64,000 bases of DNA from an uncultured bacterium (GCA_964561595.1 CAZLQH010000003.1:9025-73024); one strand, 5' to 3'. Counted from the stretch's first letter, positions 30,183 through 46,207 are shown. A program made the numbers and translations. Notes: generated from the letters alone by a model not told the origin.

Positions 30183-30974
30183 ATGGACCTGCTCGAGCCC
30201 ACGTTGCGCCGGATCGCCTGGCTCGAAGCGGCGGCCGCGGACGCCCTGGCGCCGGCCGAGGAGGTCGTCTCCGACGGCTGGCGCCTGCGCTTCAACCGGG
30301 GCGTCACGCGCCGCGGCAACAGCGTCCTGCCCGAGGCCCGCGGTGAGCGACCGCTGGGCGCCAAGCTGAGCGAGGCCGAGACGTTCTACCGGAGGCGCGG
30401 CGTCGTGCCACGCTTCCAGCTCACCTCGGCCGCCCGTCCGGCCCGTCTGGACGACGAGCTCGCCCGCCGCGGCTGGGAGCGCGAGCCGGGCGCGACGGTG
30501 CTGCAGCACGGACTCGAGACGCTGCCCGAGGCGCCCGACGACGCCGCAGCGGGCGACGTTCGCGTGGCCGAGCGGCCGGACGCCGGCTACACCTCGGTCC
30601 AGGACGCCGTGGTGCCCGGCTCCGGCGCTTGGGCCGAGGCGAGGGCAGCGGCGCTCCACGGCGCGGGGCTGGTGCCGTGGCACCTCGACGTCCGCGGTGA
30701 CGACGGGCGCGCGGTCGCGGCCGGGCTGGCCGTGCTCGATCCTCAGCGCCGGTGCGTGGGCCTGTTCTCGCTCGCGACCGTTCCAGGCGCCCGCGGGCGT
30801 GGCCACGGACGCGCCCTCGTCGCCGCGGCGCTGCGCCGTGCGCACGCTGCCGGTGCACGCTGCGCGTACCTCCAGGTGGACGCCCGGAACGACGCGGCGT
30901 TACGCCTGTACCGGCGGCTCGGTTTCGGGGTGCATCACGCCTATCACTACCGGCGGGGCGAGTCGCCCGACTAG
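30183..30974 (+). CDS. GNAT-family N-acetyltransferase
   Basis: ORF 30183..30974(+), 263 aa. Acetyl-CoA-binding motif A ATVPGARGRGHGRALVAAAL and C-terminal NDAALRLYRRLGF. Confidence 0.8.
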   Translation: MDLLEPTLRRIAWLEAAAADALAPAEEVVSDGWRLRFNRGVTRRGNSVLPEARGERPLGAKLSEAETFYRRRGVVPRFQLTSAARPARLDDELARRGWEREPGATVLQHGLETLPEAPDDAAAGDVRVAERPDAGYTSVQDAVVPGSGAWAEARAAALHGAGLVPWHLDVRGDDGRAVAAGLAVLDPQRRCVGLFSLATVPGARGRGHGRALVAAALRRAHAAGARCAYLQVDARNDAALRLYRRLGFGVHHAYHYRRGESPD

Positions 30975-32083: not shown

Positions 32084-33040
32084 ATGAAGGCGATCGTCGA
32101 ACGAGGTGGCGCGCTCCGCTGGACCGACGCGCCCGATCCCGTCCCAGGCCCCCGCGACGCCCTGGTCCGCGTCGGCGCCGCGGGCGTCAACCGTGCCGAT
32201 CTCGCGCAACGCGCCGGACGCTACCCGCCTCCGCCCGGCGCGTCCGAGATCCTCGGCCTCGAGGTGGCGGGCGAGGTGCTCTCCGCCCCGCCGGACAGCG
32301 GCTGGCGTCCGGGCGACCGGGCCTGCGCGCTGCTTCCCGGGGGCGGCTACGCCGAGCTGGCCGCGGTCCCCGCGCGGATGCTGATGCCGGTGCCCGCCCG
32401 CCTGGACGACGTGCAGGCGGCTTCGCTGCCCGAGGTGCACCTGACGGCGTTCCTGAACCTGATCCTCGAGGCGGGGCTCCGGCCCGGCGAGCGGGCGCTG
32501 GTCCACGGTGGCGCCAGCGGCGTCGGCACCGCGGCGATCCAGCAGATCCGGGAGATCGGCGCGCACGTCGCGACCACCTCCAGCGCCGGGAAGGTGGACC
32601 GCTGCGCCGCGCTCGGGGCGGACCCAGCGCTGGACCGGCGCGACCCGGCGTGGGCTGAGCGGCTGCGAGACGCCTGGGGCTCCGTCGACGTGATCCTGGA
32701 CATGGTCGGCGCGGACACCGCGGCTGCTGCGTTCGATCTTCTGGGCACCGGTGGCAGGCTGATCTGGATCGCGACGCTGTCGGGCGCGAAGATCGAGGTC
32801 GACGTCCGGGTCGCGATGCGCAAGCGCCTGACGCTGAAGGGCTCGACGCTCCGCGCCAGGCCGCTGAACGAGAAGATCACGCTTCGCGACGCGTTCGTCG
32901 CCAGGCTCTGGCCGGCGTTGGAGGCGGGCCGCATCGTCCCGGTCGTGCACGAGGCGGTCGCCGTCGCCGAGGTCGAGCGTGCCCACGAGCTGCTGCGCGC
33001 CAACGCGACCGTCGGCAAGGTCGTGCTGCGGATGCCGTGA
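32084..33040 (+). CDS. NAD(P)H:quinone oxidoreductase (zeta-crystallin/PIG3-type MDR)
   Basis: ORF 32084..33040(+), 318 aa. GVNRADLAQRAGRYPPPPGASEILGLEVAGEV, nucleotide motif HGGASGVGTAAIQ, C-terminal GKVVL. Confidence 0.88.
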   Translation: MKAIVERGGALRWTDAPDPVPGPRDALVRVGAAGVNRADLAQRAGRYPPPPGASEILGLEVAGEVLSAPPDSGWRPGDRACALLPGGGYAELAAVPARMLMPVPARLDDVQAASLPEVHLTAFLNLILEAGLRPGERALVHGGASGVGTAAIQQIREIGAHVATTSSAGKVDRCAALGADPALDRRDPAWAERLRDAWGSVDVILDMVGADTAAAAFDLLGTGGRLIWIATLSGAKIEVDVRVAMRKRLTLKGSTLRARPLNEKITLRDAFVARLWPALEAGRIVPVVHEAVAVAEVERAHELLRANATVGKVVLRMP

Positions 33041-33058
33041 CGGACCGCGCGCGACGAA

Positions 33059-33118
33059 GAATCCCGTGGGGTCTCCGCTGGGGGGGCAGCGGGGCGCGGA
33101 GACGCGGCCACGGGATTC
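33059..33118 (+). terminator. 60-nt compound hairpin after the quinone oxidoreductase gene
   Basis: Outer arms GAATCCCGTGG / CCACGGGATTC (11 bp), inner arms GTCTCCG / CGGAGAC, and a G-rich apical loop. It starts 19 nt after the stop. No U-tract. Confidence 0.5.
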
Positions 33119-33206
33119 GCCGGCGAGCGTACCCAGGCCGGGCCGCGTCCGGGTAGGTCGCCGGTCACAGTTCGGGTCGCCGTCCGCCCCTGGTACGCTT
33201 CGGCCC

Positions 33207-33953
33207 GTGGATACGCCTCCGTTCACCCGCCTGGCCCAGGTCTACGACGCCATCATGGAGGACGTCGAGTACGACGACTGGGTCGCGTTCGTGCTCAGGC
33301 AGGCGACCGTTCGGGGCTTCGCGGGCGGGAGGCTCCTGGATCTGGGGTGCGGTACCGGGAACGCCACCGCGCCCGCGCTGGACCGGGGGTTCGAGGTCGA
33401 CGGGCTCGACGCCTCGCCGGAGATGCTCGAGGTGGCGCGGGCCAAGCTGCCGGACACCGAGTTTCACGTCGGCGACGTGCGCGACTTCGAGCTGCCGCAC
33501 CGCTACGCGTTGGTGTACTCCGTGTTCGACGCGCTCAACAACCTGCTGACGGACGAGGCGTTCGTGGCGATGGCGCGCCAGGTGCGGCGGCACCTGGAGC
33601 CGGGCGGCTGGTTCGTGTTCGACGCGAACACCCGCGCCGGTCTACGGCGTCTGTGGGAGGACGACCGCGCGGAAGGGTGGGCCGGCGAGGTGTACTACCG
33701 CTGGCTTCACCGCTACGACCCCGGCACCGACCTGGCCGTCGTCGAAGCGTTCTGCGACGGTCCGGGCGGGGCGTTCACGGAGGTGCACCAGGAGCGGCCG
33801 TACGATCCGGACGACCTCCGGCGCCTGTTGCACGATGCCGGCTTCGCTGCGGTCGAGGTGCTCGTATACCCGGACGCCGTTCCGGCGGACGCCAGCGAGC
33901 CTCGGGTCTGGACGTTCGCGCGGGCGCCCGGCCACGAAAACGAAGGTTCCTAG
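33207..33953 (+). CDS. Class I SAM-dependent methyltransferase
   Basis: Part of ORF 32979..33953(+). GTG 33207 lies 7 nt after a TACGCT hexamer. Motif I LLDLGCGTGN; post-I GLDASPEML. Confidence 0.8.
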   Translation: MDTPPFTRLAQVYDAIMEDVEYDDWVAFVLRQATVRGFAGGRLLDLGCGTGNATAPALDRGFEVDGLDASPEMLEVARAKLPDTEFHVGDVRDFELPHRYALVYSVFDALNNLLTDEAFVAMARQVRRHLEPGGWFVFDANTRAGLRRLWEDDRAEGWAGEVYYRWLHRYDPGTDLAVVEAFCDGPGGAFTEVHQERPYDPDDLRRLLHDAGFAAVEVLVYPDAVPADASEPRVWTFARAPGHENEGS

Positions 33954-33967
33954 CCGCCCCGGCCGGT

Positions 33968-34924
33968 CTACCCCTCGCCCGAAGCCTCGTTCGACCGGCT
34001 GCCCGGCTGTTCGACCGTTTCCCGGCTCGCCGCCGGTCCAGCGGGCGCCGGATCGACGCCGGCCGCCTCGCGCGCCAGGCGGGCGATGTTGCTGACGTCC
34101 TCGTCGCCGAAGCCGCGCCGGATCAGGACCGTCTCGGCCTGCTCGACCCAGGCGGCGAGCGGCAACGGCACGCCCCGCTCGCGAGCGGCGTCCAGCGCGA
34201 TGCCGAGGTCCTTGCGGTGCAGGCGCGTGCGGAATCCGAGGGGGTAGGCGCCTCGCAGCATGTTGGGACCGCGGTTCGTCAGGCCCCACGATCCCGCGGC
34301 GCCGCCCGAGAGCGCCTGCAACGCCGCCTCGGCGTCGATGCCGGAGCGCATCGCGAACGACAGTCCTTCGGCCACCGCGGCGTACGTGCCGGCGATGACG
34401 ACCTGGTTCACCGCCTTGCACAGCTGGCCGGCGCCGACGGAGCCCACCCTCGTCAAGGTCGTCCCCAGCACCGAGAGCACCGGCCTGGCCCGCTCCAGCA
34501 CCTCCTCGTCTCCGCCGATCATGATCGACAGCGTGCCGTTCGCGGCGCCTTCGCTCCCGCCGGAGCAGGGGGCGTCGAGCATGTGGACGCCCCGGCGCCG
34601 CAGAGCCTCCGCGATCTCGCGGGTGACGTCCGGCGAGATCGTGGACATGTCGATCACGATCGCGCCCTCGCCCAGCCCCTCCGCCACGCCGTCCGGACCC
34701 AGCACCACCTCTCGCACGTCGGGCGAGTCGCCGACGATCGTGACGACCATCTCCGCCCCTTCCGCCGCCTCGCGCGGGGTCGCCGCCCGAGCCGCGCCGG
34801 CGTCGGCCAGCGGCCGCTCGCGCTCGCGCGTGCGGTTGTGGACCGTGACCTCGTGCCCAGCGTCCAGCAGCCGGCGTGCCATCGGCGCGCCCATCGTTCC
34901 GAGTCCGACGAATCCCACCTTCAT
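33968..34924 (-). CDS. NAD(P)-dependent beta-hydroxyacid dehydrogenase (3-hydroxyisobutyrate / 2-hydroxy-3-oxopropionate reductase family)
   Basis: ORF 33968..34924(-), 318 aa. MKVGFVGLGTMGAPMARRL, DAPCSGGSEGA, catalytic-Lys region GAGQLCKAVNQ. The ATG overlaps the acuC stop (ATGA, 34921-34924). About 30-aa low-complexity C-terminal tail. Confidence 0.88.
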   Translation of the reverse strand: MKVGFVGLGTMGAPMARRLLDAGHEVTVHNRTRERERPLADAGAARAATPREAAEGAEMVVTIVGDSPDVREVVLGPDGVAEGLGEGAIVIDMSTISPDVTREIAEALRRRGVHMLDAPCSGGSEGAANGTLSIMIGGDEEVLERARPVLSVLGTTLTRVGSVGAGQLCKAVNQVVIAGTYAAVAEGLSFAMRSGIDAEAALQALSGGAAGSWGLTNRGPNMLRGAYPLGFRTRLHRKDLGIALDAARERGVPLPLAAWVEQAETVLIRRGFGDEDVSNIARLAREAAGVDPAPAGPAASRETVEQPGSRSNEASGEG

Positions 34925-36168
34925 GATGTTCCTTCCCGGCGCGTCGCCGCGCCCGCCCGCGTCGCGGCGCTGGCCCGCATCGTCGCGTGATCCCGCCAGA
35001 TCGGCTCCAGCACGGCCGAGAGGCGCTTGGCGACGGCGGCGTTGTGTTCCTCGACCTGCTGGCGCCTGGGTTGCTGCGGATGGTCGTCCGGACCGTCGAG
35101 CGCCCGCTCCGGGAGCGGACCCCCGGCCGCCTCGCGCCAGCGGTGCCGCCAGGCGTCCGGTAGGCGGTCCGGGACCTCCCGCCCGGTCATCGCCGACCAG
35201 GCCTGAGCCCAGGCGCGCGGCGCCACGGAGAACGCCTCGTAGCCGCCGCCGCCGGTGACGATCCAGCGACCGCCGGTGAGCTCGTCCGCCAGCGCCGCGA
35301 CGCGTCGGTAGAGGTCGCGCAGGCCTCGCAACGTGAGCGACAGGTCGGCCAGCGGATCGTCGCGGTGTGGATCGGCGCCGGCCTGCACCAGAAGCAGGTC
35401 CGGTCCGAACGCACGCAGCGCGCGGGGGACCACCTCGTCGAACGCGTCGAGGTAGCTGTCGTCCTCGGTGAACGGCTCCAGCGGGAGGTTCACCGACAGG
35501 CCCCGGCCCTCTCCGGTCCCCAGCTCGTAGCTGTGCCCGGTGCCGGGGAAGAGGTACCGGCCGGACTCGTGCAGGCTGATCGTGAGCACGTCGGCGCGAT
35601 CGTAGAACACCTGCTGGACCCCGTCGCCGTGGTGCGCGTCCAGGTCGAGGTAGGCGACGCGGAGTCCGCGGTCGGTGGCGCGCAGGATCGCCAGCGCCAG
35701 GTCGTCGTACACGCAGAAGCCCGAAGCCCGGTCGGGCATGGCGTGGTGCAGGCCTCCCGCGAAGGTCGCGGCGCGCCTCGTGCGGCCGTCCAGCACCAGC
35801 TGCATCGCGGTCACGGTGGCGGCGCAGACCGCCTCGACGCTCTGGTGCAGCCCGTCGACGACGGGCGTGTCGGCCGTCCCGAGACCGAACCGGTACGCCT
35901 CTTCGGGACGTTCGCCTCGCGAGACCCGGGCGACCATCTCGAGGTACGCGGCGTCGTGGACCCGCCCCAGCTCGCCAGGCCGAAGCGGGGTGGGCGCGAC
36001 CACCTCGTCCGCGTGGAGCAGGCCGGCGGTCTCGAGCAGGTCCTTGACGAGGGCCAGGCGGACCGGCTTGAACGGGTGGTCGGGCGACAGCGTCCAGCTC
36101 GCCAGCTCGGGGGCGTAGACGAACGCGGCGTCGAGCGTGGGCTCCGCGGACGGGTCGGCATCGCTCAC
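34921..36168 (-). CDS. acuC: Acetoin utilization protein AcuC / class I histone-deacetylase-like lysine deacetylase
   Basis: Part of ORF 34921..36576(-). GTG 36168 overlaps the acuB stop (GTGA). Motifs GGLHHA, DLDAHHGDG and GGGGY are characteristic of the Zn-dependent HDAC fold. Confidence 0.88.
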   Translation of the reverse strand: MSDADPSAEPTLDAAFVYAPELASWTLSPDHPFKPVRLALVKDLLETAGLLHADEVVAPTPLRPGELGRVHDAAYLEMVARVSRGERPEEAYRFGLGTADTPVVDGLHQSVEAVCAATVTAMQLVLDGRTRRAATFAGGLHHAMPDRASGFCVYDDLALAILRATDRGLRVAYLDLDAHHGDGVQQVFYDRADVLTISLHESGRYLFPGTGHSYELGTGEGRGLSVNLPLEPFTEDDSYLDAFDEVVPRALRAFGPDLLLVQAGADPHRDDPLADLSLTLRGLRDLYRRVAALADELTGGRWIVTGGGGYEAFSVAPRAWAQAWSAMTGREVPDRLPDAWRHRWREAAGGPLPERALDGPDDHPQQPRRQQVEEHNAAVAKRLSAVLEPIWRDHATMRASAATRAGAATRREGTS

Positions 36169-36815
36169 GTGGGCTCGGGACCGGACGACGGCTCCCGTTC
36201 CAGCGGCCAGCCGATCTCGTACCCCTCCTCGCGCAGCCAGCGCGCCAGGCCGCGCCCGTCCATCGTGCCGACGCGCAGCACGAACGCGACGACGTCCGGC
36301 TCGCTCCGGGTCGTGAGGACGCTCGCGACGTTCGCGCCGCGCGCGGCCAGCCGGTCCAGCAGCCCGGCCAGGGCGCCGGGACGGTTGGGCAGCTCGACCT
36401 CGAGGCGGGTCGACGCCCGCCCGACGCCCGTCATCTCGACCAGCGCGTCCAGAAAGTCGCTGGCCGTGACGATGCCGACCAGGTCGCCGGACTCCATGAC
36501 GGGCATCGCTCCGATGGCGTGGTGGCGCAGAACGCTGGCCGCCTCGTCGATCGGGTCCAGCGGGTGGGCCGTCCACACGAGCGTCGTCATCAACGCGCGC
36601 ACGGGATCCGAGACGCCGACGTCGGGCCGGGCCTTGGGGTGGCGGCTTCCGACGGTGCGGAGGTCACGGTCGGACACGATGCCGACGAGGCGCCCCTCGT
36701 CCAGGACGGGGAAGTGTCGTAGGCGCCGTTGCGCCATCAGGGCGGTCACGTCGCCGATCGGCTCGTCGGGGCCGATGGCGACCACCGGTCGCGTCATGAT
36801 GTCTCGTACGAGCAT
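36165..36815 (-). CDS. acuB: Acetoin utilization protein AcuB (tandem CBS domains plus ACT domain)
   Basis: Part of ORF 36165..37166(-). ATG 36815 with a GAGGAGGA SD. MLVRDIMTRPVVAI...HFPVLDEGRLVGIVSDRDL (CBS pair), then LEVELPNRPGALAGLLDRLAARGANV (ACT). Confidence 0.85.
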   Translation of the reverse strand: MLVRDIMTRPVVAIGPDEPIGDVTALMAQRRLRHFPVLDEGRLVGIVSDRDLRTVGSRHPKARPDVGVSDPVRALMTTLVWTAHPLDPIDEAASVLRHHAIGAMPVMESGDLVGIVTASDFLDALVEMTGVGRASTRLEVELPNRPGALAGLLDRLAARGANVASVLTTRSEPDVVAFVLRVGTMDGRGLARWLREEGYEIGWPLEREPSSGPEPT

Positions 36816-36852
36816 GGTCCTCCTCGGGTCGCCCCACGATAGCGCGAACCGC

Positions 36853-37440
36853 TCATGCGCCCAGTCCGCGCGGCTTCGTACGTAGCCGGTGGAACTCGCG
36901 CACGACGGCCTCGGGCGCGCCTGGGCCGATGCGCGCGACCAGGCCGTTGGCGGGATCGGCGCGCACCTCGGGGTCGCTGGTGGGCATCGGCTCCAGTCCG
37001 ACCTTGCCGTACAGGCGCTCCAGGCGGCGCTTGTACGCGAACGGTCCGAGGCCGGACCGGTCGAGGTCGTAGTGCCAGGCGTAGAGGGTGGCGAACACGA
37101 CCGTGCCGTCGTAGCGGCCGCCGGCGAACGCCCACTCGAGCATCCGCTCGGCGAGGTGCTCGCCACGGACGGCGGGCGCGACCTCGACGGCGCCGAGCTC
37201 GATCAGGCGACCGCTGCGGTCGTCGCCCCAGGTCTCGATCTCGCTGGGCGGGTGGAAGGTGACGTAGCCGACGGTACGCGTCGCGTCCTCGGCGACGACG
37301 ACGAGGCCGTGCGGGTCGGACGCGATGTCGATGAGCGCGAGGCGCTGCAGATCGGGCGGCCGGAACACGTCCAACGCGGGGTGAAGAGGAAGGGGAGGCG
37401 CGTCCGCGGTCAGCTCGCGGACGCGCGCTCCCGACGTCAT
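36853..37440 (-). CDS. acuA: Acetoin utilization protein AcuA (GNAT-type protein lysine acetyltransferase)
   Basis: Part of ORF 36853..37791(-). ATG 37440 overlaps the stop of the STAND gene (ATGA). Blocks shared with B. subtilis AcuA as I recall it: VGYVTF, LIELGAVEVAP..RG, DPEV..DPANGLVARIG, FHRLR. Confidence 0.85.
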   Translation of the reverse strand: MTSGARVRELTADAPPLPLHPALDVFRPPDLQRLALIDIASDPHGLVVVAEDATRTVGYVTFHPPSEIETWGDDRSGRLIELGAVEVAPAVRGEHLAERMLEWAFAGGRYDGTVVFATLYAWHYDLDRSGLGPFAYKRRLERLYGKVGLEPMPTSDPEVRADPANGLVARIGPGAPEAVVREFHRLRTKPRGLGA

Positions 37441-40400
37441 GCGGGGCTCTCGGCGGGGAGGGCGCCGTCTCGGGCGTGGGCGCGCCAGCGGTCGACGAGC
37501 AGGTCGCCCGGCCGGAGCAGCCCGTCGGCCGCTTCGCCCCGGAGCGGCGCGGGGAAGCGCGGGTGCGTGAGCCAGGCGGTCCGGCCGTGCGTCTCGAGCG
37601 CCTCGCCCGCCGCCCGGAGCGCGCCCGCGCGCATCGTGCTCGGAAGGTCGTCGTCCAGCAGGCGCCCGAGCGTGGCGCCGAGCGACGCCGGATCGCCGTG
37701 CGCCACGTCGATGCGAAGCGCCAAGGCACGTAGCCACGCGTGCAGGCCCGGATCGCCCGTGCTGTCGCCGACGGCCTGCAGCGCGGACCATGCCTGGTCC
37801 ACCGCTTCGCCCGCGGCGCCGGCCCGCCCGGCGCGGAGCAGCGCCGCCGCCCGGTGCACGGCCACTTCGGCGCGCAGGAAGGGGAAGCGCGAGAACCGGT
37901 CGGCGCGGTCGACCAGCGCCAGGGCATCCGGCGCCGGTTCCAGCAACGACGCGACCAGCAGCGCGCGCCGAGCCAGGGCGTCGGCAGGCCGCGTCTCCTC
38001 CTCGCCGGCCGGTACGCGGCGCGCGACGGTCTCGAGCAGCGCGCGCGCCTGCCTAAGGTCGCGACTCCGCGCGGGAGCGTCGTCCAGCTGCGGGAAGGGC
38101 GGGACCCAGGCGACGCCGAGGCCTCGGGCGGCGTAGGCGGCGCCCAGTCGAAGGACCGTCCGATCGATCCGGTAGGCGGCGTCCACCCCGTGGGCGTCGC
38201 CGTAGGCGCGATAGCGCTCCGCGGTCGACGCCAGCAGCGAGACCGCCCGGTCGTGGTCGCCGCGGGCCAGCAGCAGCAGCGCGCGTTCGTCGTCCACCCG
38301 CGCGCTCCAGAAGCCGCGTTCGATCGCGTCGCCCTCCTCCGTGTCGAGGATCGTGCGCGCGGCGGCGAAGTCGGCGTCCGCGGCGTCCAGGTCGCCGAGG
38401 CGGAGCGACAGCGTGGCGCGGCGGGCCAGGTACCGGGTGCGCTCGCTCCCGAGCGCACCGCTCCGCTGTGCCAGGCGGACCGCGTCGTCGAAGCTGGCCG
38501 AGGCGTCCGCGAAGCGGCCCAGCGACATCCGCACGTCGCCGGACTGGAACGCCAGGCGCGCGCGCACGAGGTCGTCGTCGGACTCGACGCTGGCGAACTC
38601 GCGGGCCGCCGCTTCGAGGTCGCCGCGGTCCTTGTGGATCAGGCCGGCCCACACCGCCACCTTGGCGCGCCCGAGACGCTGCGCGGCGTCGCGACCCTCG
38701 AGCGTCGCGACCTGGGGACGCGCCTCGGTCTCGACGATGCGGGCGGCTTCCTCGAGATCGCCGCGCCAACGCACGATGCTGGCGCGGACCAGCGCCGCCT
38801 CCGCCGACATCAGCGGATCGTCGCTGCCCGGCCACGAGGCGAGCAGCAGGCGGGCCGTCTCGTGGTGCCCGCGCAGCACCGAGCCTTCGGCCTGCTTGAG
38901 CACCGCCCACGCCCGGCGCCGCGCGTCCGCGGACGCTGTGAGCACGGTGAACGCGTCCAGGGCGTCGCTGTGCTGGTACGAGCCCAGCTTCACGTAGTGG
39001 CCGGCGACCTCTTCGGCCAGCCGCTCGAACGCGCCTCTGTCGCGAGGAGCGAGCTCGTCGCGTGCCGTGCGCCAGGCGCGCCGCGCCAGCGACTGGGGGA
39101 CCCCGTGCTGGCGCATCCATTCGATCAGCGCGTCCCAGTCGCGCGCTTCGTAGAGATGGTGGACGTGCCGAGCCGCGGTCTCGCCGCTGGGCGCCGCCTC
39201 CGCTTCGTCGTGGAGCCGCGCCGCGGCGGCCGCGTGGAGGCGGCGGTGACGCTGGGGGTCGTCGTTCGCCAGCCGGTCTCGGAGCGCACGGACCAAGCGA
39301 CGGGAGAAGCAACGGACCTCGTCGGCGTCGTCGCCGGGCAGCGTGTCGACGAAGGCGCGCTCGAGCTCGCTGGGCGAGCCTTGCTGGTCCGGCCTCAGCG
39401 CGCTCAGATCGGCGAGGCGGAAGGTCGGGAACTCGGGCAGCGAGATGACCGCGAGGGCCGCCAGGAAGTCGCGCAGCCGTGCGTCGCCGCCACCGATCAC
39501 GAGGTCGCTCAGCCGCGCGATGGACGCTTCCGAGGTGTCGTCTTCGGGCAGCGGGGCTCGGATCTCCGCGAGCAGGGTGAGCGTCCTCAGCTCTTCGAAC
39601 GAGCGGCCGGCCCGCTGGACGATCTCCTCCTGCTCGCCGGCGGGCAGGTGCGGCAGGCGCGCCTTGACGAAGCGGCGGGCCTCGCCCGCTGTGGGCGGCG
39701 TGAGTCTTACGGGCACGCCGAAGCCGCCGGGACGCTGAAGCGCACGGGCGGGCAGATCGGTCATCGAGACGAGGACGCTGGTCGAGGGAAGGGTCGAGAG
39801 CGGGTCGATCAGGGTGGACCAGAGCCACTCGGGCGCGCCCACGCGCGGGACCTCGGGCGTGTTCAGCCGGAGCGGCACCGCGCCCAGCGTCTGCTGGTGC
39901 GTGAGGGCCTGGGAGACGTGGAGCAGGAGGACCACGGGAGCGTCGTCGGCGCGCAGGGCGTCGAGGATCGCCCGGGCGACGTCGGCCTGGGCGTCCGCCT
40001 GGACGGCGTAGGCGCCGCCCGTGCCGATCTTGGCCAGGCGCGCCTCCATCGCGTCGCGCTCGACCCCCAGGCGCTCGCCGAGGCGGGCCAGCGTCGTTCC
40101 CAGATCGGCGCCGCCGAACTCCGCACGGATCACCTGCGCATCGGCCGCAGGTGGAACCTGGAGCGCCTGCTGGATGTAGTCGGTGAGCATCGTCTTGCCG
40201 GAGCCGGGCCGGCCGGTGACGAGGAGCTTGGGGTGCTCGCCGTCCCGTACCGAGCGGACGAACGAGCGGAACGCGCGCCGCTTCTCGCGTCCGAGGAGCT
40301 GCAGCACCTCCTGCTCGGCGCTGGCGTGCGGCGAGAGCAGAACCTCGATCTCGGGCGCGTGCAGCGGCTCGTCGCTGGCGGCGGCCCACAGCTCCCGGAG

Positions 40401-40619
40401 GATCTCGAACAGCACGCGCTTGTCGGAGAGCTTGCCCTTGTCGCGGTAGATGATGTTGCGCACGACGTTCGGGTTCGCGCCGCGCGCCTCCATCTGCCTA
40501 CGGAGCCAGTTGATGCTTCCGAGCACGCCCTGCTCGTCGCGTCTGGTGCCGACGGCGTCGCGCACCGTCTCGAAGACGGCACGCCAAGGACTGACGGTGG
40601 TTCGCGGAGTCGCGGGCAC
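37437..40619 (-). CDS. STAND-like P-loop NTPase with a long helical/TPR-like C-terminal region and a possible N-terminal HTH
   Basis: ORF 37437..40619(-), 1060 aa. GTG start 6 nt after a TAGACT hexamer. Walker A GRPGSGKT at aa 136-143. Hydrophobic strand VVLLLH (about aa 229-234) in the Walker B position without the canonical Asp. About 650 aa of Ala/Leu/Arg-rich helical repeats. In the N-terminal 130 aa, INWLRRQMEARGANPNVVRNIIYRDKGKLSDKRVLFEIL loosely resembles an XRE-type HTH. Confidence 0.8.
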   Translation of the reverse strand: MPATPRTTVSPWRAVFETVRDAVGTRRDEQGVLGSINWLRRQMEARGANPNVVRNIIYRDKGKLSDKRVLFEILRELWAAASDEPLHAPEIEVLLSPHASAEQEVLQLLGREKRRAFRSFVRSVRDGEHPKLLVTGRPGSGKTMLTDYIQQALQVPPAADAQVIRAEFGGADLGTTLARLGERLGVERDAMEARLAKIGTGGAYAVQADAQADVARAILDALRADDAPVVLLLHVSQALTHQQTLGAVPLRLNTPEVPRVGAPEWLWSTLIDPLSTLPSTSVLVSMTDLPARALQRPGGFGVPVRLTPPTAGEARRFVKARLPHLPAGEQEEIVQRAGRSFEELRTLTLLAEIRAPLPEDDTSEASIARLSDLVIGGGDARLRDFLAALAVISLPEFPTFRLADLSALRPDQQGSPSELERAFVDTLPGDDADEVRCFSRRLVRALRDRLANDDPQRHRRLHAAAAARLHDEAEAAPSGETAARHVHHLYEARDWDALIEWMRQHGVPQSLARRAWRTARDELAPRDRGAFERLAEEVAGHYVKLGSYQHSDALDAFTVLTASADARRRAWAVLKQAEGSVLRGHHETARLLLASWPGSDDPLMSAEAALVRASIVRWRGDLEEAARIVETEARPQVATLEGRDAAQRLGRAKVAVWAGLIHKDRGDLEAAAREFASVESDDDLVRARLAFQSGDVRMSLGRFADASASFDDAVRLAQRSGALGSERTRYLARRATLSLRLGDLDAADADFAAARTILDTEEGDAIERGFWSARVDDERALLLLARGDHDRAVSLLASTAERYRAYGDAHGVDAAYRIDRTVLRLGAAYAARGLGVAWVPPFPQLDDAPARSRDLRQARALLETVARRVPAGEEETRPADALARRALLVASLLEPAPDALALVDRADRFSRFPFLRAEVAVHRAAALLRAGRAGAAGEAVDQAWSALQAVGDSTGDPGLHAWLRALALRIDVAHGDPASLGATLGRLLDDDLPSTMRAGALRAAGEALETHGRTAWLTHPRFPAPLRGEAADGLLRPGDLLVDRWRAHARDGALPAESPA

Positions 40620-40796
40620 CTCCCTAGTCTATCGTGACCGGTAATCGGGTACACAATCTCGCAGACGGCGTGGGAGCGCTCGCGCCGCCGCTTTCGCAGC
40701 GCCGTCGCGCGCGGGTACACATCGCATCCAGCCGCCGCGGTCGTCCCGTCCCCGGGGCCACGGAACGGCGCGAGGGCCGGTGCTATGCTCCGCGCC

Positions 40797-41942
40797 ATGG
40801 ATCTGCTGGCCCACGCCGCCTCCGGTGCGCGCCTCACGGCCGACGAAGCGCTCGAGCTTCAAGCGGCCCCGCTGTTCGCGCTGGCGGGCGCCGCCGACGC
40901 CGTGCGGCGCCTGCGGACCGACCCGACCACCGTCACCTACCTGATCGATCGCAACGTGAACTACTCGAACGTGTGCACGATCGGCTGCGCCTTCTGCGGC
41001 TTCTACCGCACGCGTCGGCAGGCGGACGCGTACGTGCTGAGCTACGACGCCATCTCCGAGAAGCTCCGCGAGCTCGAGGCGGTCGGGGGGAGCCGCGTGC
41101 TCATGCAGGGCGGCGTGCACCCGACCCTGCCGTTCTCCTGGTACCTGGACCTGATGCGGCACCTCAAGGAGCGTCACCCGACGATCCGCGTCGAGTCGTT
41201 CAGCCCCGAGGAGATCAAGGGCATGGCGAAGCTGACCGGCATGACCCCCCTCGAGGTGCTGCGGGAGCTGGCCGCGGCCGGCCTCGACGGGCTTCCGGGA
41301 GGCGGAGGCGAGATGCTCGTCGACGACGTCCGCCACGCCAAGCACGTGTCGCCGGCGCGCATCTCGGCAGACGAGTGGATCGCCGTGATGGACGACGCCC
41401 AGTCGCTGGGGCTCTACACGACCGCGACGATGGTGATCGGCTTCGGAGAGACCGAAGCGCAACGCATCGCGAGCCTCATGCGGATCCGCGATCAGCAGGA
41501 CCGGGCGCTGTCCCGCTACGGCAGCGGCTTCTCGGCGTTCATCTCGTGGACCCTCCAGACCGAGGGCGTCCGCATCCACGGCAAGGCGCCCGGCGCCGGC
41601 CCGCACGAGTACCTGAAGAACGTCGCGACCGCCCGGCTGGTGCTCGACAACGTCGTGAACCACCAGGCGTCCTGGCCGACGATGGGCTACAAGGTCGCGC
41701 AGACGGCGCTGCACTTCGGCTGCAACGACTTCGGCAGCACGATGCTCGAGGAGAACGTGGTCTCGCAGGCGGGCGCCAGGCACCGCGCCACGCCCGAGCG
41801 CGAGATGGTGCGCCAGATCGTCGAGGCGGGCTACGTCCCCAAGCAGCGAGACAGCCTCTACGCCATCGTCGCGGTCCCCGACGTCGACGCCGTCCTCGCG
41901 CCCCCCGCGCCGGGCGCGGACGAGCCGCAGCCGGCGGCGTAG
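40797..41942 (+). CDS. Radical SAM menaquinone (futalosine pathway) enzyme of the MqnC/MqnE family
   Basis: ORF 40785..41942(+). I prefer ATG 40797 because ATG 40785 lies inside a TGcTATGCT extended -10 (40784-40789) that sits 7 nt before 40797. CxxxCxxC cluster NYSNVCTIGCAFCGFY, GG motif VLMQGGVHP, CofH/MqnC-type C-terminal domain. Confidence 0.85.
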   Translation: MDLLAHAASGARLTADEALELQAAPLFALAGAADAVRRLRTDPTTVTYLIDRNVNYSNVCTIGCAFCGFYRTRRQADAYVLSYDAISEKLRELEAVGGSRVLMQGGVHPTLPFSWYLDLMRHLKERHPTIRVESFSPEEIKGMAKLTGMTPLEVLRELAAAGLDGLPGGGGEMLVDDVRHAKHVSPARISADEWIAVMDDAQSLGLYTTATMVIGFGETEAQRIASLMRIRDQQDRALSRYGSGFSAFISWTLQTEGVRIHGKAPGAGPHEYLKNVATARLVLDNVVNHQASWPTMGYKVAQTALHFGCNDFGSTMLEENVVSQAGARHRATPEREMVRQIVEAGYVPKQRDSLYAIVAVPDVDAVLAPPAPGADEPQPAA

Positions 41943-43729: not shown

Positions 43730-46207
43730 TCACCAGTCGAACGACTGGCGGTGGACGGTCCGGATCGTGCCGTCCTCGCTGGTGGTCACGGTCCAGGACA
43801 GGCCGAGCCGCTCGGCGACGATGGCCAGCGCGTCGGGGCCGACCTCGACCAACGTCAGCAGGTCGGCGAACGGCGGCACTTCTGCCAGCGCCTCCTCGGC
43901 CGACGCGTCGGTCTCCGTCTCGGCCTCGGTCTCGGCCTCGTCCTCGGCACCGAGGTCCTCGGCGTCGTCGACGACCAGCTCGATCCGGTACGCGCCCTGA
44001 CCGCTGCCGCCCCAGGTCGTGGCGCCGATCAGGAGCTCGCGCCCGTCCGACCGGAAGCGGATCTCCGACCGGTCGGTCCATGGGGCGTCGTCGTTCTCCG
44101 CCAGGACGTTGCCGGTCTCGGCGTCGTACAGGTAGAGGAACGTATCCAGCGGCTCCGACGTCATCACGACGGACGCCTCCACGCCGGCGGGAAGCGCCGC
44201 GGGGCGCCAGAGATCGACGGTCTCGCCCATCTCGGCGAGGGTCGCGTCGGGTCCCAGCTCGGCGTCCACCGGAACGTTGGACGCCAGCGGGCGCGCCTCG
44301 ACGGGGAGCGCGTCACCGATGCCGGAGAAGCCGGTCTGCCCGCTCAGGTCGACGAGCGGCTGCTCGTCGCCGAACGAATCGAAGTCGGGCTCGTCGGTGA
44401 GCGTCTCCTCGCTGCGCGCCTCCTCGAGGGCGGCGGACAGCCCCAGCGAGATGCCCGCCGCGACCGGCTGGGTGGCCAAGCGAAGCGTGTCGGCCAGACC
44501 GGCGAGGTCGGCCCCGCCGTCCGCGTACGACCAGCCGACGCGGCCGGTGGGGGAGGCGTCGACGATCGCCGACCAGCCTTCGCCGTCGCGGCCGTCGCCG
44601 CCATCGCCTCGGGCGACGGCGAGGACGTCCGCGAACGCGGTGGAGGGCGTCGCGATCACGAGGTGGTCGTCGACGATGCCGACGGCCAGGTCCGTGGTGG
44701 GGCCGATCTGGACGCGGCGCACGGCCACGCCGTCGATCTCGGTCTCGCGGACCGAGAGCATGGTCTGCACGCCGGCGAGGTCGTCGAGGTCGGCGGCCAT
44801 CTCGTCGGTGGACGCCAGCAGCGTGGTGGCCGCCTCGGCCAGCGCGTCGAGCCCCGCCTCGGCCTCGACGGCGGAGGTCACAGGAACGATCGTCGCGGAG
44901 GCGGGCTGGAACAGCAGGTCGGAGACGGTGGGCGAGAGCGCGTCGAAGCGGACCGTGTGCGCCTCGTCGCCCAGCCAGGAGAGCAGCAGCGCGTCGAGGT
45001 CCAGGCCCGCCTCGTCCAGCAGGGTGGCACGCACGGTGGTCGGCTCGCCCATGGCGGCGCTCACGTCGCCCACGACGCCGTCCAGCCAGTCCAGCCACGC
45101 CGTCGGGCGCAGGCTCGAGCCGCTGGCCGACACCGCGTCGGCGGGCGCCCACGCCGGCTCGTTCGAGGTACAGGTCGCGCAGGTCAGCAGGTCGTACAGC
45201 GCCGCGTCGCCGCCGTCCGCGTCGGGCGCGAGCGTCGCTTCGAGCCGCCATCCCGCCTCGTCCAGCACGAGGCGCGATCCGCCGGCGCCCACGGTGCGGA
45301 GGATCGCGGCGACGCGGTCCACGGCCGCGACGACGGCCTCTTGGTCGGGCGGGATCGGGAGCGAGGAGGTCAGGACGTCGGCCAGACCGGCGACGTCGAA
45401 CAGAACGCGCGCGCCCAGCGCGGGGTCGCCCGCGACGGCCGCGGGGTGGTCCGCCAGGGACGGCTCGTCGGCCCCGGCGGCACGGCGGAGCGCGCCGCGG
45501 ACCAGGTCGGGGCGCGAGCCCGCCAGGAACAGGTCGCCCGAGCGCGCCACGACGAGCGGAAGGTCCTCGCCGTCGAACAGCACGTGCATCTCGACGCCGC
45601 CCTCGCTCCCCAATGCGTCGCCGCCGAAGCAGTCCAGCAGCGCGTCGTGCAGCGCGTCGGCCGAAGCGCGCGCGCCGTCCGCGACGCGGGCCGCCGCGAG
45701 CACGCCGGGCAGTGGCGCGAACGGATCGACGGCGACGGCCAGCAGCAGGTCGTCCGACCACACCTGCTGGCCATCCAGCCCGGCGACCGCCTCGGCAGCG
45801 GCGGGGCACGCCTCGCCCAGCGCGCCGGCGATCTCGTCGGGGGTGCCGACGTCGTCGGCCATGTCCAAGAGCCCGGGAACGAACATCGCGGCCGGACCGC
45901 CGCCGCCCAGCAGCGCCGGGGCGGAGCCGCCCAGCTCCTCGAGCACCGGCTTCAGCGCGTCCAGCGCGGCGCGTGCACGTTCGAGGTCGAGGTCTTCGAA
46001 GGCGGCATCCAGGTCGCCCGCGGGAAGCTGCCCCTGCGTCAGGCCCAGCGCCAGGACGGTCTCCGCGGGCGCGAGGCGCTCCAGCGGGACGTCGCTCTGG
46101 GCCAGGCCCGGCGACGCCAGCAGGACCAGCGTCAGGCCGACGAGCAGGGATACGATCCCGGCCGGGCGGGCGAGGCTCGAACGTTCGAAGCGTAGGTGTC
46201 GTGGCAT
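43730..46207 (-). CDS. Large acidic secreted protein of unknown function with a PPC-like (pre-peptidase C-terminal type) beta-domain
   Basis: ORF 43730..46207(-), 825 aa. SD GGAAAGGA. Signal peptide ...IVSLLVGLTLVLLASPGLAQ. Highly Asp/Glu/Ala/Leu-rich. Near aa 660-720, TFLYLYDAETGNVLAENDDAPWTDRSEIRF...GAYRIEL fits the D.DxY.F / NDD pattern of PPC-type domains. An ETEAETEAETETDA linker and a roughly 60-aa terminal domain follow. I recognised no catalytic motif. Confidence 0.8.
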   Translation of the reverse strand: MPRHLRFERSSLARPAGIVSLLVGLTLVLLASPGLAQSDVPLERLAPAETVLALGLTQGQLPAGDLDAAFEDLDLERARAALDALKPVLEELGGSAPALLGGGGPAAMFVPGLLDMADDVGTPDEIAGALGEACPAAAEAVAGLDGQQVWSDDLLLAVAVDPFAPLPGVLAAARVADGARASADALHDALLDCFGGDALGSEGGVEMHVLFDGEDLPLVVARSGDLFLAGSRPDLVRGALRRAAGADEPSLADHPAAVAGDPALGARVLFDVAGLADVLTSSLPIPPDQEAVVAAVDRVAAILRTVGAGGSRLVLDEAGWRLEATLAPDADGGDAALYDLLTCATCTSNEPAWAPADAVSASGSSLRPTAWLDWLDGVVGDVSAAMGEPTTVRATLLDEAGLDLDALLLSWLGDEAHTVRFDALSPTVSDLLFQPASATIVPVTSAVEAEAGLDALAEAATTLLASTDEMAADLDDLAGVQTMLSVRETEIDGVAVRRVQIGPTTDLAVGIVDDHLVIATPSTAFADVLAVARGDGGDGRDGEGWSAIVDASPTGRVGWSYADGGADLAGLADTLRLATQPVAAGISLGLSAALEEARSEETLTDEPDFDSFGDEQPLVDLSGQTGFSGIGDALPVEARPLASNVPVDAELGPDATLAEMGETVDLWRPAALPAGVEASVVMTSEPLDTFLYLYDAETGNVLAENDDAPWTDRSEIRFRSDGRELLIGATTWGGSGQGAYRIELVVDDAEDLGAEDEAETEAETETDASAEEALAEVPPFADLLTLVEVGPDALAIVAERLGLSWTVTTSEDGTIRTVHRQSFDW

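Follow-up and report, generated by a model that had tools for sequence, protein, structure and literature searches.

A STAND-like P-loop/TPR protein heads a conserved, leaderless-type acuABC-dehydrogenase operon in Trueperaceae

MalT carries a LuxR-type helix-turn-helix (HTH) at its C-terminus, and GutR of Bacillus subtilis combines an N-terminal HTH with an NB-ARC-type NTPase and tetratricopeptide repeats (TPRs) and activates the glucitol dehydrogenase operon. When STAND proteins (signal transduction ATPases with numerous domains) that end in TPRs and carry an N-terminal effector lie beside metabolic genes, transcriptional control is their usual role, as in AfsR, MalT and GutR (PMC10936776). 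MalT is activated by its inducer together with ATP (PMC10936776), and GutR, according to work cited in the same paper, binds its inducer and then ATP (PMC10936776). Little is understood of how bacteria time reversible lysine acetylation. In Bacillus, acetyl-CoA synthetase is among the proteins that AcuA acetylates and AcuC deacetylates, and in B. subtilis acuB and acuC overlap by 4 nt (PMC13039410). As known for the Bacillus and Geobacillus proteins, AcuB is an AcuC inhibitor stabilised by diadenosine tetraphosphate (Ap4A), and this control of AcuC was described only in 2026 (PMC13039410). Here we analyse a 64,000-nt stretch of DNA (the window; GCA_964561595.1, CAZLQH010000003.1:9025-73024) from an uncultured bacterium whose genome is Trueperaceae-like (Deinococcota), in which acuA, acuB, acuC and a dehydrogenase gene follow the gene of a 1060-aa STAND-like protein. 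This protein most likely controls the expression of the acu and dehydrogenase genes rather than forming a new acetylation machine. The reading that we favour, at roughly even confidence, is that of an AfsR/MalT/GutR-like STAND regulator autoregulating a leaderless operon that contains a Bacillus-type Acu switch and a dehydrogenase.

Five consecutive genes occupy positions 33968-40619 of the window, all on the minus strand (the strand of every window coordinate below unless marked otherwise), each with a GC content at third codon positions (GC3) of 0.91-0.93 in its called frame; the window as a whole is uniform in composition, with a GC content of 73%. The operon opens with the gene of the STAND-like P-loop/TPR protein (37437..40619; GTG start, TGA stop, GC3 0.92). 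It is followed by acuA (36853..37440; 195 aa, ATG start), acuB (36165..36815; 216 aa, preceded by a GAGGAGG Shine-Dalgarno sequence), acuC (34921..36168; 415 aa, GTG start) and a beta-hydroxyacid dehydrogenase gene (33968..34924; 318 aa, ATG start). The original prediction, made from the sequence alone, had described these genes as one very tight unit, and the coordinates and three 4-nt overlaps on which it relied were reproduced when the junctions were read directly. The NTPase TGA and the acuA ATG share ATGA (37437-37440), the acuB TGA and the acuC GTG share GTGA (36165-36168), and the acuC TGA and the dehydrogenase ATG share ATGA (34921-34924). Only acuA and acuB do not overlap, being separated by a 37-nt spacer that contains the GAGGAGG sequence. 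The divergent neighbours of the operon encode MqnC and an aminofutalosine-deaminase-like hydrolase. The absence of a nearby acsA was also as predicted: the AMP-binding signature PS00455 does not occur in any of the six frames of the window, and none of the large open reading frames (ORFs) scanned in it has an AMP-binding Pfam match. No Rfam match was found in 33000-41500.

Its recurrence in dozens of species shows that the arrangement is not a chance one. When one genome per species was scanned, relatives of the STAND protein turned up in 101 genomes; 80 loci with GC contents of 37%-75% (cited below by L-numbers) were compared, their neighbours being identified by tblastn with the proteins of the window, and 60 of them were informative in having at least 4.5 kb of downstream sequence. 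The STAND gene is followed by AcuA-AcuB-AcuC-dehydrogenase in 27 of these 60 loci, by AcuA-AcuB-AcuC in five and by AcuB-AcuC-dehydrogenase in another five. AcuC alone follows in two loci, and AcuC-dehydrogenase, AcuB-AcuC and AcuA alone in one locus each; the dehydrogenase stands alone in nine, and none of these genes is present in nine. One or more acu genes are therefore directly downstream in 42/60 informative loci (70%), so that the homologues do co-occur with acu genes, and 18/60 have no adjacent acu gene. The order STAND-acuA-acuB-acuC-dehydrogenase is conserved in Trueperaceae. A neighbour-joining tree spreads the dehydrogenase-only loci over three or more distinct clades and gathers the loci with none of these genes mainly in the lower-GC clades; the acu cassette has disappeared from beside the NTPase on at least three independent occasions. 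The gene that follows, be it an acu gene or the dehydrogenase gene, usually starts -4 to +20 nt from the NTPase stop (~60 species). The median distance from the NTPase to AcuA is ~10 nt, with a 4-nt overlap in the window and in L005-L007, L023, L040, L069 and L083, and the NTPase and dehydrogenase genes overlap by 4 nt in 9/12 dehydrogenase-only loci. Co-transcription of the STAND gene with the genes behind it is thus a conserved trait. Association with acu genes is frequent and outlives some rearrangements (L026, L055, L067, L073, L077). Because 18/60 loci keep a strongly conserved NTPase without adjacent acu genes, and because acuABC clusters without the STAND protein are found in B. subtilis (PMC13039410) and in other metagenomic lineages, the two parts are separable, and the STAND protein is independent of adjacent acu genes.

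What stays with the STAND gene is its promoter. A -10 element, TAGACT (40626-40631), lies 6 nt (AGGGAG) before the GTG start at 40617-40619, which is the only in-frame start upstream of the conserved residues S10-P11-W12-R13; the sequence thus confirms the leaderless-type start proposed earlier. A TANNNT element a few bases before the ORF is a validated leaderless promoter type of this phylum (PMC4007540, PMC12340547), and such an element is found 6-8 nt ahead of the start codon in 54/67 homologous loci. In 69/77 loci, across the range of 37%-75% GC, a longer pattern is kept: a (T/G)(T/G)TGTAC box, 17-19 nt, a TANNNT -10 element, 6-8 nt and the start codon. In the window the proximal TGTGTAC box (40649..40655), a candidate operator or activator site, lies in the -35 region, 17 nt upstream of the -10 element, and a distal TGTGTAC box (40715..40721), oriented alike, lies a further 66 bp upstream; both boxes read TGTGTACCCG. 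This two-box layout, with a distance of 66-69 bp, is also present in the closest relatives (L005, L006, L007, L069). The heptamer TGTGTAC occurs exactly twice in the 64-kb window, both times in this intergenic region. T[GT]TGTAC occurs 129 times in the 1.18 Mb of loci; 68 of these copies are within 260 bp upstream of the STAND gene, and in the per-locus listing 65/67 upstream boxes have the orientation of the gene. A generic -35 element was considered as an explanation and rejected, the heptamer being the sole copy in most 19-kb loci and having only two copies in the window. Loci whose flanking genes are all different still have the box, which hence belongs to the STAND gene and not to the divergent mqnC. 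A -35 element is absent from most leaderless promoters of this phylum (PMC12340547), and a conserved box at this place therefore suggests a factor-binding site. A conserved, gene-specific box in the -35 region points to transcriptional control.

The protein behind this promoter belongs to a family that is small and confined to one lineage. When 1.84 billion cluster representatives were searched exhaustively with HMMER, only 101 matched at E <= 1e-3, and the full-length ones among them are nearly all ~930-1100 aa long; a word-indexed search gave 281 full-length relatives, the few named ones all coming from metagenome-assembled genomes of Trueperaceae or Deinococcales. An actinobacterial origin of the window, considered in view of its 73% GC, was rejected on the strength of these homologues. 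Pfam reported AAA_16 at 31.4 bits, under the cut-off of 32.6, and a weak TPR_8. Neither NCBIfam nor a sequence search of the PDB gave a match, PF00931 (NB-ARC) was not matched at E <= 0.01, and Trans_reg_C and BTAD were matched neither in the whole protein nor in its N-terminal domain. No GerE/LuxR HTH was matched in Pfam or NCBIfam, the C-terminus consisting of TPR-like helices to its end. PADLOC returned only short P-loop matches (E >= 1e-3, 26-55 residues), and the PHROGs matches were likewise at P-loop level. By sequence (Pfam, NCBIfam, PADLOC), the protein does not fall cleanly into a characterised family such as MalT/LAL, SARP, NB-ARC or antiphage proteins.

Its predicted structure is more telling. 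An AlphaFold2 model built with 44 homologues in the alignment has a mean predicted local distance difference test score (pLDDT) of 87.9. It contains a P-loop core of five strands (aa 131-136, 162-168, 229-235, 280-286 and 304-306), followed by a helical and winged-helix part (aa 311-455; 39255..39689) with beta-strands at 399-401, 424-426 and 434-437. Just ahead of the helical part is an L-x-P-P-T-x-x-E-A-R-R-F motif (aa 306-317) in which L306, P309, E313, R315 and R316 are conserved. A TPR-like superhelical arm, the putative sensor (aa 456-1052; 37464..39254), consists of ~25 paired helices, carries the TPR_8 match and resembles TPR superhelices in Foldseek. The best Foldseek match in the PDB is the STAND-TPR protein 6MFV (E 4e-10), and Avs3, Avs5 and CED-4 also appear amid many TPR proteins. 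The model thus shows a STAND-like fold, with a nucleotide-binding oligomerisation domain (NOD) made of core, helical and winged-helix parts, a repeat arm and a separate N-terminal domain. The STAND-like nature first read from the sequence is borne out by this confident model and these matches, and the ~650 aa of helical/TPR-like repeats correspond to ~600 aa of paired helices in the model (to aa 1052).

The nucleotide-binding motifs, too, are as they had been read: an intact Walker A motif and a VVLLLH strand without Asp, both conserved in the homologues. The Walker A motif GRPGSGKT (aa 136-143; 40191..40214) has G136, G139, S140, G141, K142 and T143 invariant in the 44 homologues, and G141 and K142 are retained in the wider family. 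In the Walker B strand VVLLLHVSQ (aa 229-237; 39909..39935), whose residues 229-235 are predicted to form a beta-strand, His replaces the acidic residue. Of the 44 close homologues, 43 have H at position 234; members of the wider family carry R (13), H (12) or some other residue there, and D or E is seen in none. Because Walker A is intact and His or Arg stands in for the Walker B acid, the protein probably binds nucleotide but scarcely hydrolyses it, if at all.

The most conserved part of the protein is its N-terminal helical domain (aa 10-125; 40245..40592), a candidate DNA-binding effector. In this domain 38/116 columns are invariant and the mean frequency of the majority residue is 0.79, versus 0.58 in the TPR part; the invariant core reads GSINWLR..M..GANPNVVRNIIYRDKG. 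A separate AlphaFold2 model of the domain (pLDDT 83) is all-helical save for one short hairpin. No significant Foldseek match was obtained, the best having E 0.13 (probability 0.82) in the viral library BFVD and 1.3 in the PDB. The weak matches are mostly HTH proteins, namely Cro, CI, HipB and immunity repressors in the viral library and EspR, 434 repressor, Cro, HipB and GraA in the PDB. An HTH fold is plausible but only weakly suggested. The possible HTH that the original prediction had placed in the first 130 aa finds no backing in Pfam, PHROGs or hhalign. The only match of the domain profile among PDB sequences, to a designer PPR protein, was a spurious repeat alignment and was rejected.

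Taken as an autoregulating STAND regulator, the protein could work as follows. The TPR arm would sense a ligand or protein signal and, together with the nucleotide state, this would release autoinhibition or drive oligomerisation. The N-terminal domain, probably DNA-binding and Cro/CI-like, would then engage the TGTGTAC box or boxes overlapping the -35 region of the protein's own promoter, and this engagement would determine how strongly all five genes are expressed, just as AfsR, MalT and GutR govern the promoters that they act on. AcuA would acetylate, and AcuC deacetylate, one or more AMP-forming acyl-CoA synthetases and other proteins encoded elsewhere, with AcuB inhibiting AcuC in a nucleotide (Ap4A)-dependent manner. 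The identities of the genes, their conserved order and coupling, the layout of the promoter with its box and the STAND fold are shown by the sequences and the model; DNA binding by the N-terminal domain, autoregulation, the signal and the Acu targets are all inferred. Autoregulation is favoured because a box overlapping the -35 region is how AfsR works (PMC10936776). The retention of protein and box where acu genes are not adjacent also fits a regulator better than an obligate partner of the Acu proteins.

Several observations weigh against this proposal. The N-terminal domain has no Pfam match (19 members scanned) and no PHROGs match, and hhalign of the domain against an approximate set of eight XRE HTH sequences (six natural domains and two consensus-like ones) gave a probability of 0.3%; no significant sequence or structure match puts it in any DNA-binding family. 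A Walker B motif without its acidic residue is atypical among characterised STAND regulators. Further copies of the box were sought in the window and none was found, so that no regulon is seen there beyond the protein's own promoter. The box could also be the site of another factor or an unusual -35 element, and the conserved gene order may in part reflect vertical inheritance within one family.

The last of these points leads to the best surviving alternative, which we regard as possible but rather unlikely: co-location without a dedicated link, the STAND protein having a job of its own, such as global regulation or the sensing of an unrelated process, and the acu and dehydrogenase genes riding on its promoter through an insertion or an ancestral arrangement that was inherited vertically in Trueperaceae. 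The wider block is indeed syntenic as a whole in the relatives, with an amidohydrolase and MqnC upstream and a methyltransferase, a quinone oxidoreductase and MreB downstream, and the downstream content differs among clades. In the lower-GC clades that have none of the acu or dehydrogenase genes, the next gene encodes an AhpD-like protein, methylmalonyl-CoA mutase or an S-layer protein (SlpA), or is a convergent malate synthase gene. However, the tight or overlapping junction is kept or re-created in nearly all lineages after each rearrangement, the acu genes remain attached where all other synteny is gone (in the five rearranged loci named above), and co-transcribed bacterial genes are usually related in function.

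Post-translational coupling, in which the STAND protein would be a sensor or scaffold that uses its TPR arm or N-terminal domain to recruit or gate AcuA or AcuC, or would itself be the target of acetylation, is unlikely. It would agree with the translational coupling implied by the 4-nt overlap between the NTPase gene and acuA in the window and seven relatives, with the binding of proteins that is typical of TPR arms, and with the lack of an acsA target within the 64 kb. Rearranged genomes, moreover, keep AcuC alone (L067, L073, L077), AcuA alone (L016, L055) or AcuB-AcuC (L026). Nevertheless, the protein, its N-terminal domain and the box are maintained in the 18 loci without adjacent acu genes, after losses of the cassette on at least three occasions. 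The 4-nt overlap is not specific to AcuA, being the one that the dehydrogenase makes in dehydrogenase-only loci, and acuABC works in Bacillus without any such protein (PMC13039410) and occurs without one in metagenomic lineages. The narrower claim that the STAND protein directly gates which proteins are acetylated, in response to a sensed signal and its nucleotide state, either by binding AcuA and/or AcuC with its TPR arm and N-terminal domain or by being reversibly acetylated, we hold to be slightly more doubtful still; if true, it would be the first NLR-like switch (nucleotide-binding, leucine-rich-repeat type) wired to a bacterial acetylation/deacetylation pair, and one with a non-hydrolysing P-loop. 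The sensor-controlled acetylation switch with a different target that was first suggested for this locus is accordingly unsupported, the acu-less loci and the conserved box in the -35 region pointing to transcription instead. Finally, an Avs-like antiphage protein beside acu genes by chance is very improbable: the Foldseek matches to Avs3 and Avs5 reflect the shared STAND-plus-repeat fold, whereas the PADLOC matches are at P-loop level only, an effector of the nuclease, SIR2 or TIR type is lacking, and the gene is single-copy, uniform in composition and set in a conserved housekeeping neighbourhood in ~100 species with no mobile-element context.

No terminator-like site was found in 33700-40900. 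A scan of the operon for consensus sigma-70 promoters gave zero matches, which is uninformative for the promoter type of this phylum. The acuA-acuB spacer contains TATCGT (36836-36841), a -10-like (TANNNT) element and possible internal promoter for acuB-acuC-dehydrogenase. A related TANCNTC element is present in 22/36 homologous acuA-acuB spacers versus 0.46 expected, 15-49 nt before acuB; its variants (L005-L084) include TATCGT, TACCAT and TAGCAT, often in the form GG-TANCNT-CG, and at many loci its first bases are those of the TAG that ends acuA. An internal promoter for acuB-acuC-dehydrogenase, alongside read-through from the STAND gene, is likely on this pattern, and this second promoter would probably let the three genes be expressed separately. 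The proposal of one transcript is thus supported by the tight junctions and the lack of a terminator-like site, but it must be qualified by the conserved element before acuB, which makes a second start probable.

The identities assigned to the four downstream genes from the sequence alone hold: AcuA, AcuB and AcuC are genuine homologues by their PDB and Pfam matches, and the dehydrogenase belongs to its family by Pfam. AcuA, a GNAT acetyltransferase of the AcuA family, scores above the cut-off for Pfam Acetyltransf_1 and matches 2q04 (E 1e-34) and B. subtilis AcuA (9g7f_C, E 1e-32) in a phmmer search of the PDB, with aa 17-191 aligned. AcuB has a CBS-CBS-ACT architecture (Pfam CBS, E 1e-29 in two stretches, ACT and TTHA0829-like_ACT) and end-to-end PDB matches to the Geobacillus protein (9s4w, E 5e-35), the B. 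subtilis protein (9qs7) and Thermus TTHA0829 (5awe, E 2e-26). AcuC, a class-I-like Zn-dependent deacetylase of the histone deacetylase (HDAC) family, matches PF00850 (E 1e-82) over 297/298 profile positions. Its translation shows GGLHHA, DLDAHHGDG, GADPHRDDP and GGGGY, that is, the HH pair, the D-H-D metal ligands and the tyrosine. Its top solved relative is HDAC6, and the class I enzymes HDAC8, HDAC1 and HDAC2 are among the best. The acuB/acuC overlap of -4 is shared by 24/37 homologous loci. The dehydrogenase, of the HIBADH/tartronate-semialdehyde-reductase family, carries NAD_binding_2 and NAD_binding_11; in NCBIfam 2-hydroxy-3-oxopropionate reductase ranks first, at 285 bits and so below the cut-off of 340, and tartronate-semialdehyde reductase is the closest family.

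Some further features of these loci deserve mention. A 100%-identical database protein, P0001 (1042 aa), is called from V19 (start region 40565-40619) and omits the conserved SPWR motif; automatic gene callers appear to misplace the start of the leaderless STAND gene. The divergent mqnC also looks leaderless, with TATGCT at 40784-40789 (+), 7 nt and an ATG at 40797. Its true start is probably 40797, because the first in-frame ATG (40785) falls inside the -10 element; TATGCT-N6/7-ATG also precedes mqnC in relatives (e.g. L023, L039, L045). Low-GC (37-43%) relatives have, in place of acu genes, an AhpD/carboxymuconolactone-decarboxylase-like gene behind the STAND gene (L046:3714-4328, L030:6196-6807, L038:11195-11806); 6k40 is its top match in the PDB (E 4e-17), and in L046 it overlaps the STAND gene by 4 nt. 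The 204-aa gene found at this place had been considered as a diverged AcuA, a candidate that was rejected on account of this AhpD/carboxymuconolactone-decarboxylase likeness. Two lineages without acuA (L026:11181-11942; L031, ~500 nt after the STAND gene) have a gap of 500-800 nt before acuB that shows no detectable similarity to AcuA and may be a decayed acuA remnant. Loci without acu genes are often near enzymes related to acyl-CoA or glyoxylate, with a convergent malate synthase or a downstream methylmalonyl-CoA mutase (L043:11408-12991, L080:11387-12970, L021:11294-12862, L082:9591-11120), and an aconitase gene lies near the main locus; an acyl-CoA/glyoxylate metabolic theme around the STAND gene is possible. 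Several loci that are otherwise rearranged (L021:7338-7805, L030:2342-2809, L082:5603-6070, L043:7318-7788, L001:7135-7602) share a second recurrent neighbour of the STAND gene, a divergent gene of 155-156 aa upstream of it with a weak GemA match (PF06252). Within the window, a second acetyltransferase gene (30183-30974, +) lies beside mreB, 3 kb from the operon, and is syntenic in relatives; its product is a GNAT protein that has an Rv0428c_C-type domain and weakly matches CG3035-family N-acetylglutamate synthase. An 825-aa ORF (43730-46207) with a strong coding signal (GC3 0.93) and no Pfam or NCBIfam match is kept between the mqnC block and aconitase, and its equivalents in relatives have a faint or unmarked DUF3352 match.

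A whole bacterial family that puts an Acu module behind a STAND protein with its own box offers a testable upstream signal input to reversible lysine acetylation. TGTGTAC is a candidate operator at a leaderless promoter, a class whose regulation has been little studied, and natural 'deletion variants' are available in which acuA, acuA and acuB, or all acu genes have been lost. Should the protein turn out to be a simple autoregulating transcription factor, the result would be a useful annotation and no new principle.

Compared with the AcuABC systems of Bacillus and Geobacillus, the locus has three full-length homologues in the same A-B-C order and the same 4-nt acuB/acuC overlap (PMC13039410). 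It differs in its divergent genes, which encode MqnC and the aminofutalosine-deaminase-like hydrolase here and AcsA there, and in having the 1060-aa STAND gene joined upstream, the dehydrogenase downstream and a leaderless promoter; the targets and Ap4A binding are presumed here by analogy. With the AfsR-type large SARPs of Streptomyces the STAND protein shares the order N-terminal effector-NOD-TPR and a box overlapping the -35 region (PMC10936776). However, the OmpR-type winged helix and the BTA domain of AfsR are missing, no sequence relationship is detectable, and Walker B lacks its acid here. MalT and other LAL regulators are similar in joining a STAND ATPase to a helical-repeat sensor and in controlling metabolic operons, and 6MFV likewise combines STAND and a TPR sensor; in contrast to MalT, the protein has no GerE/LuxR match and its sole non-repeat extra domain is N-terminal. 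GutR of B. subtilis offers a similar proposed arrangement of N-terminal DNA-binding domain, STAND module and TPRs, with an adjoining dehydrogenase gene, but here Pfam gives no NB-ARC or HTH match, Walker B is degenerate and the presumed targets share a transcript with the regulator gene. The best structural match, the archaeal STAND protein PH0952 (6MFV; E 4e-10 over 738 columns), shares the NOD and the TPR sensor at 13% identity and has a different N-terminal domain; its TM-scores are low (0.26 / 0.38) because the inter-domain geometry differs. A narrow literature search found no report of a STAND protein linked to acu genes. What is new here is a STAND family with a novel N-terminal domain and a degenerate Walker B motif, and a new operon context for acuABC.

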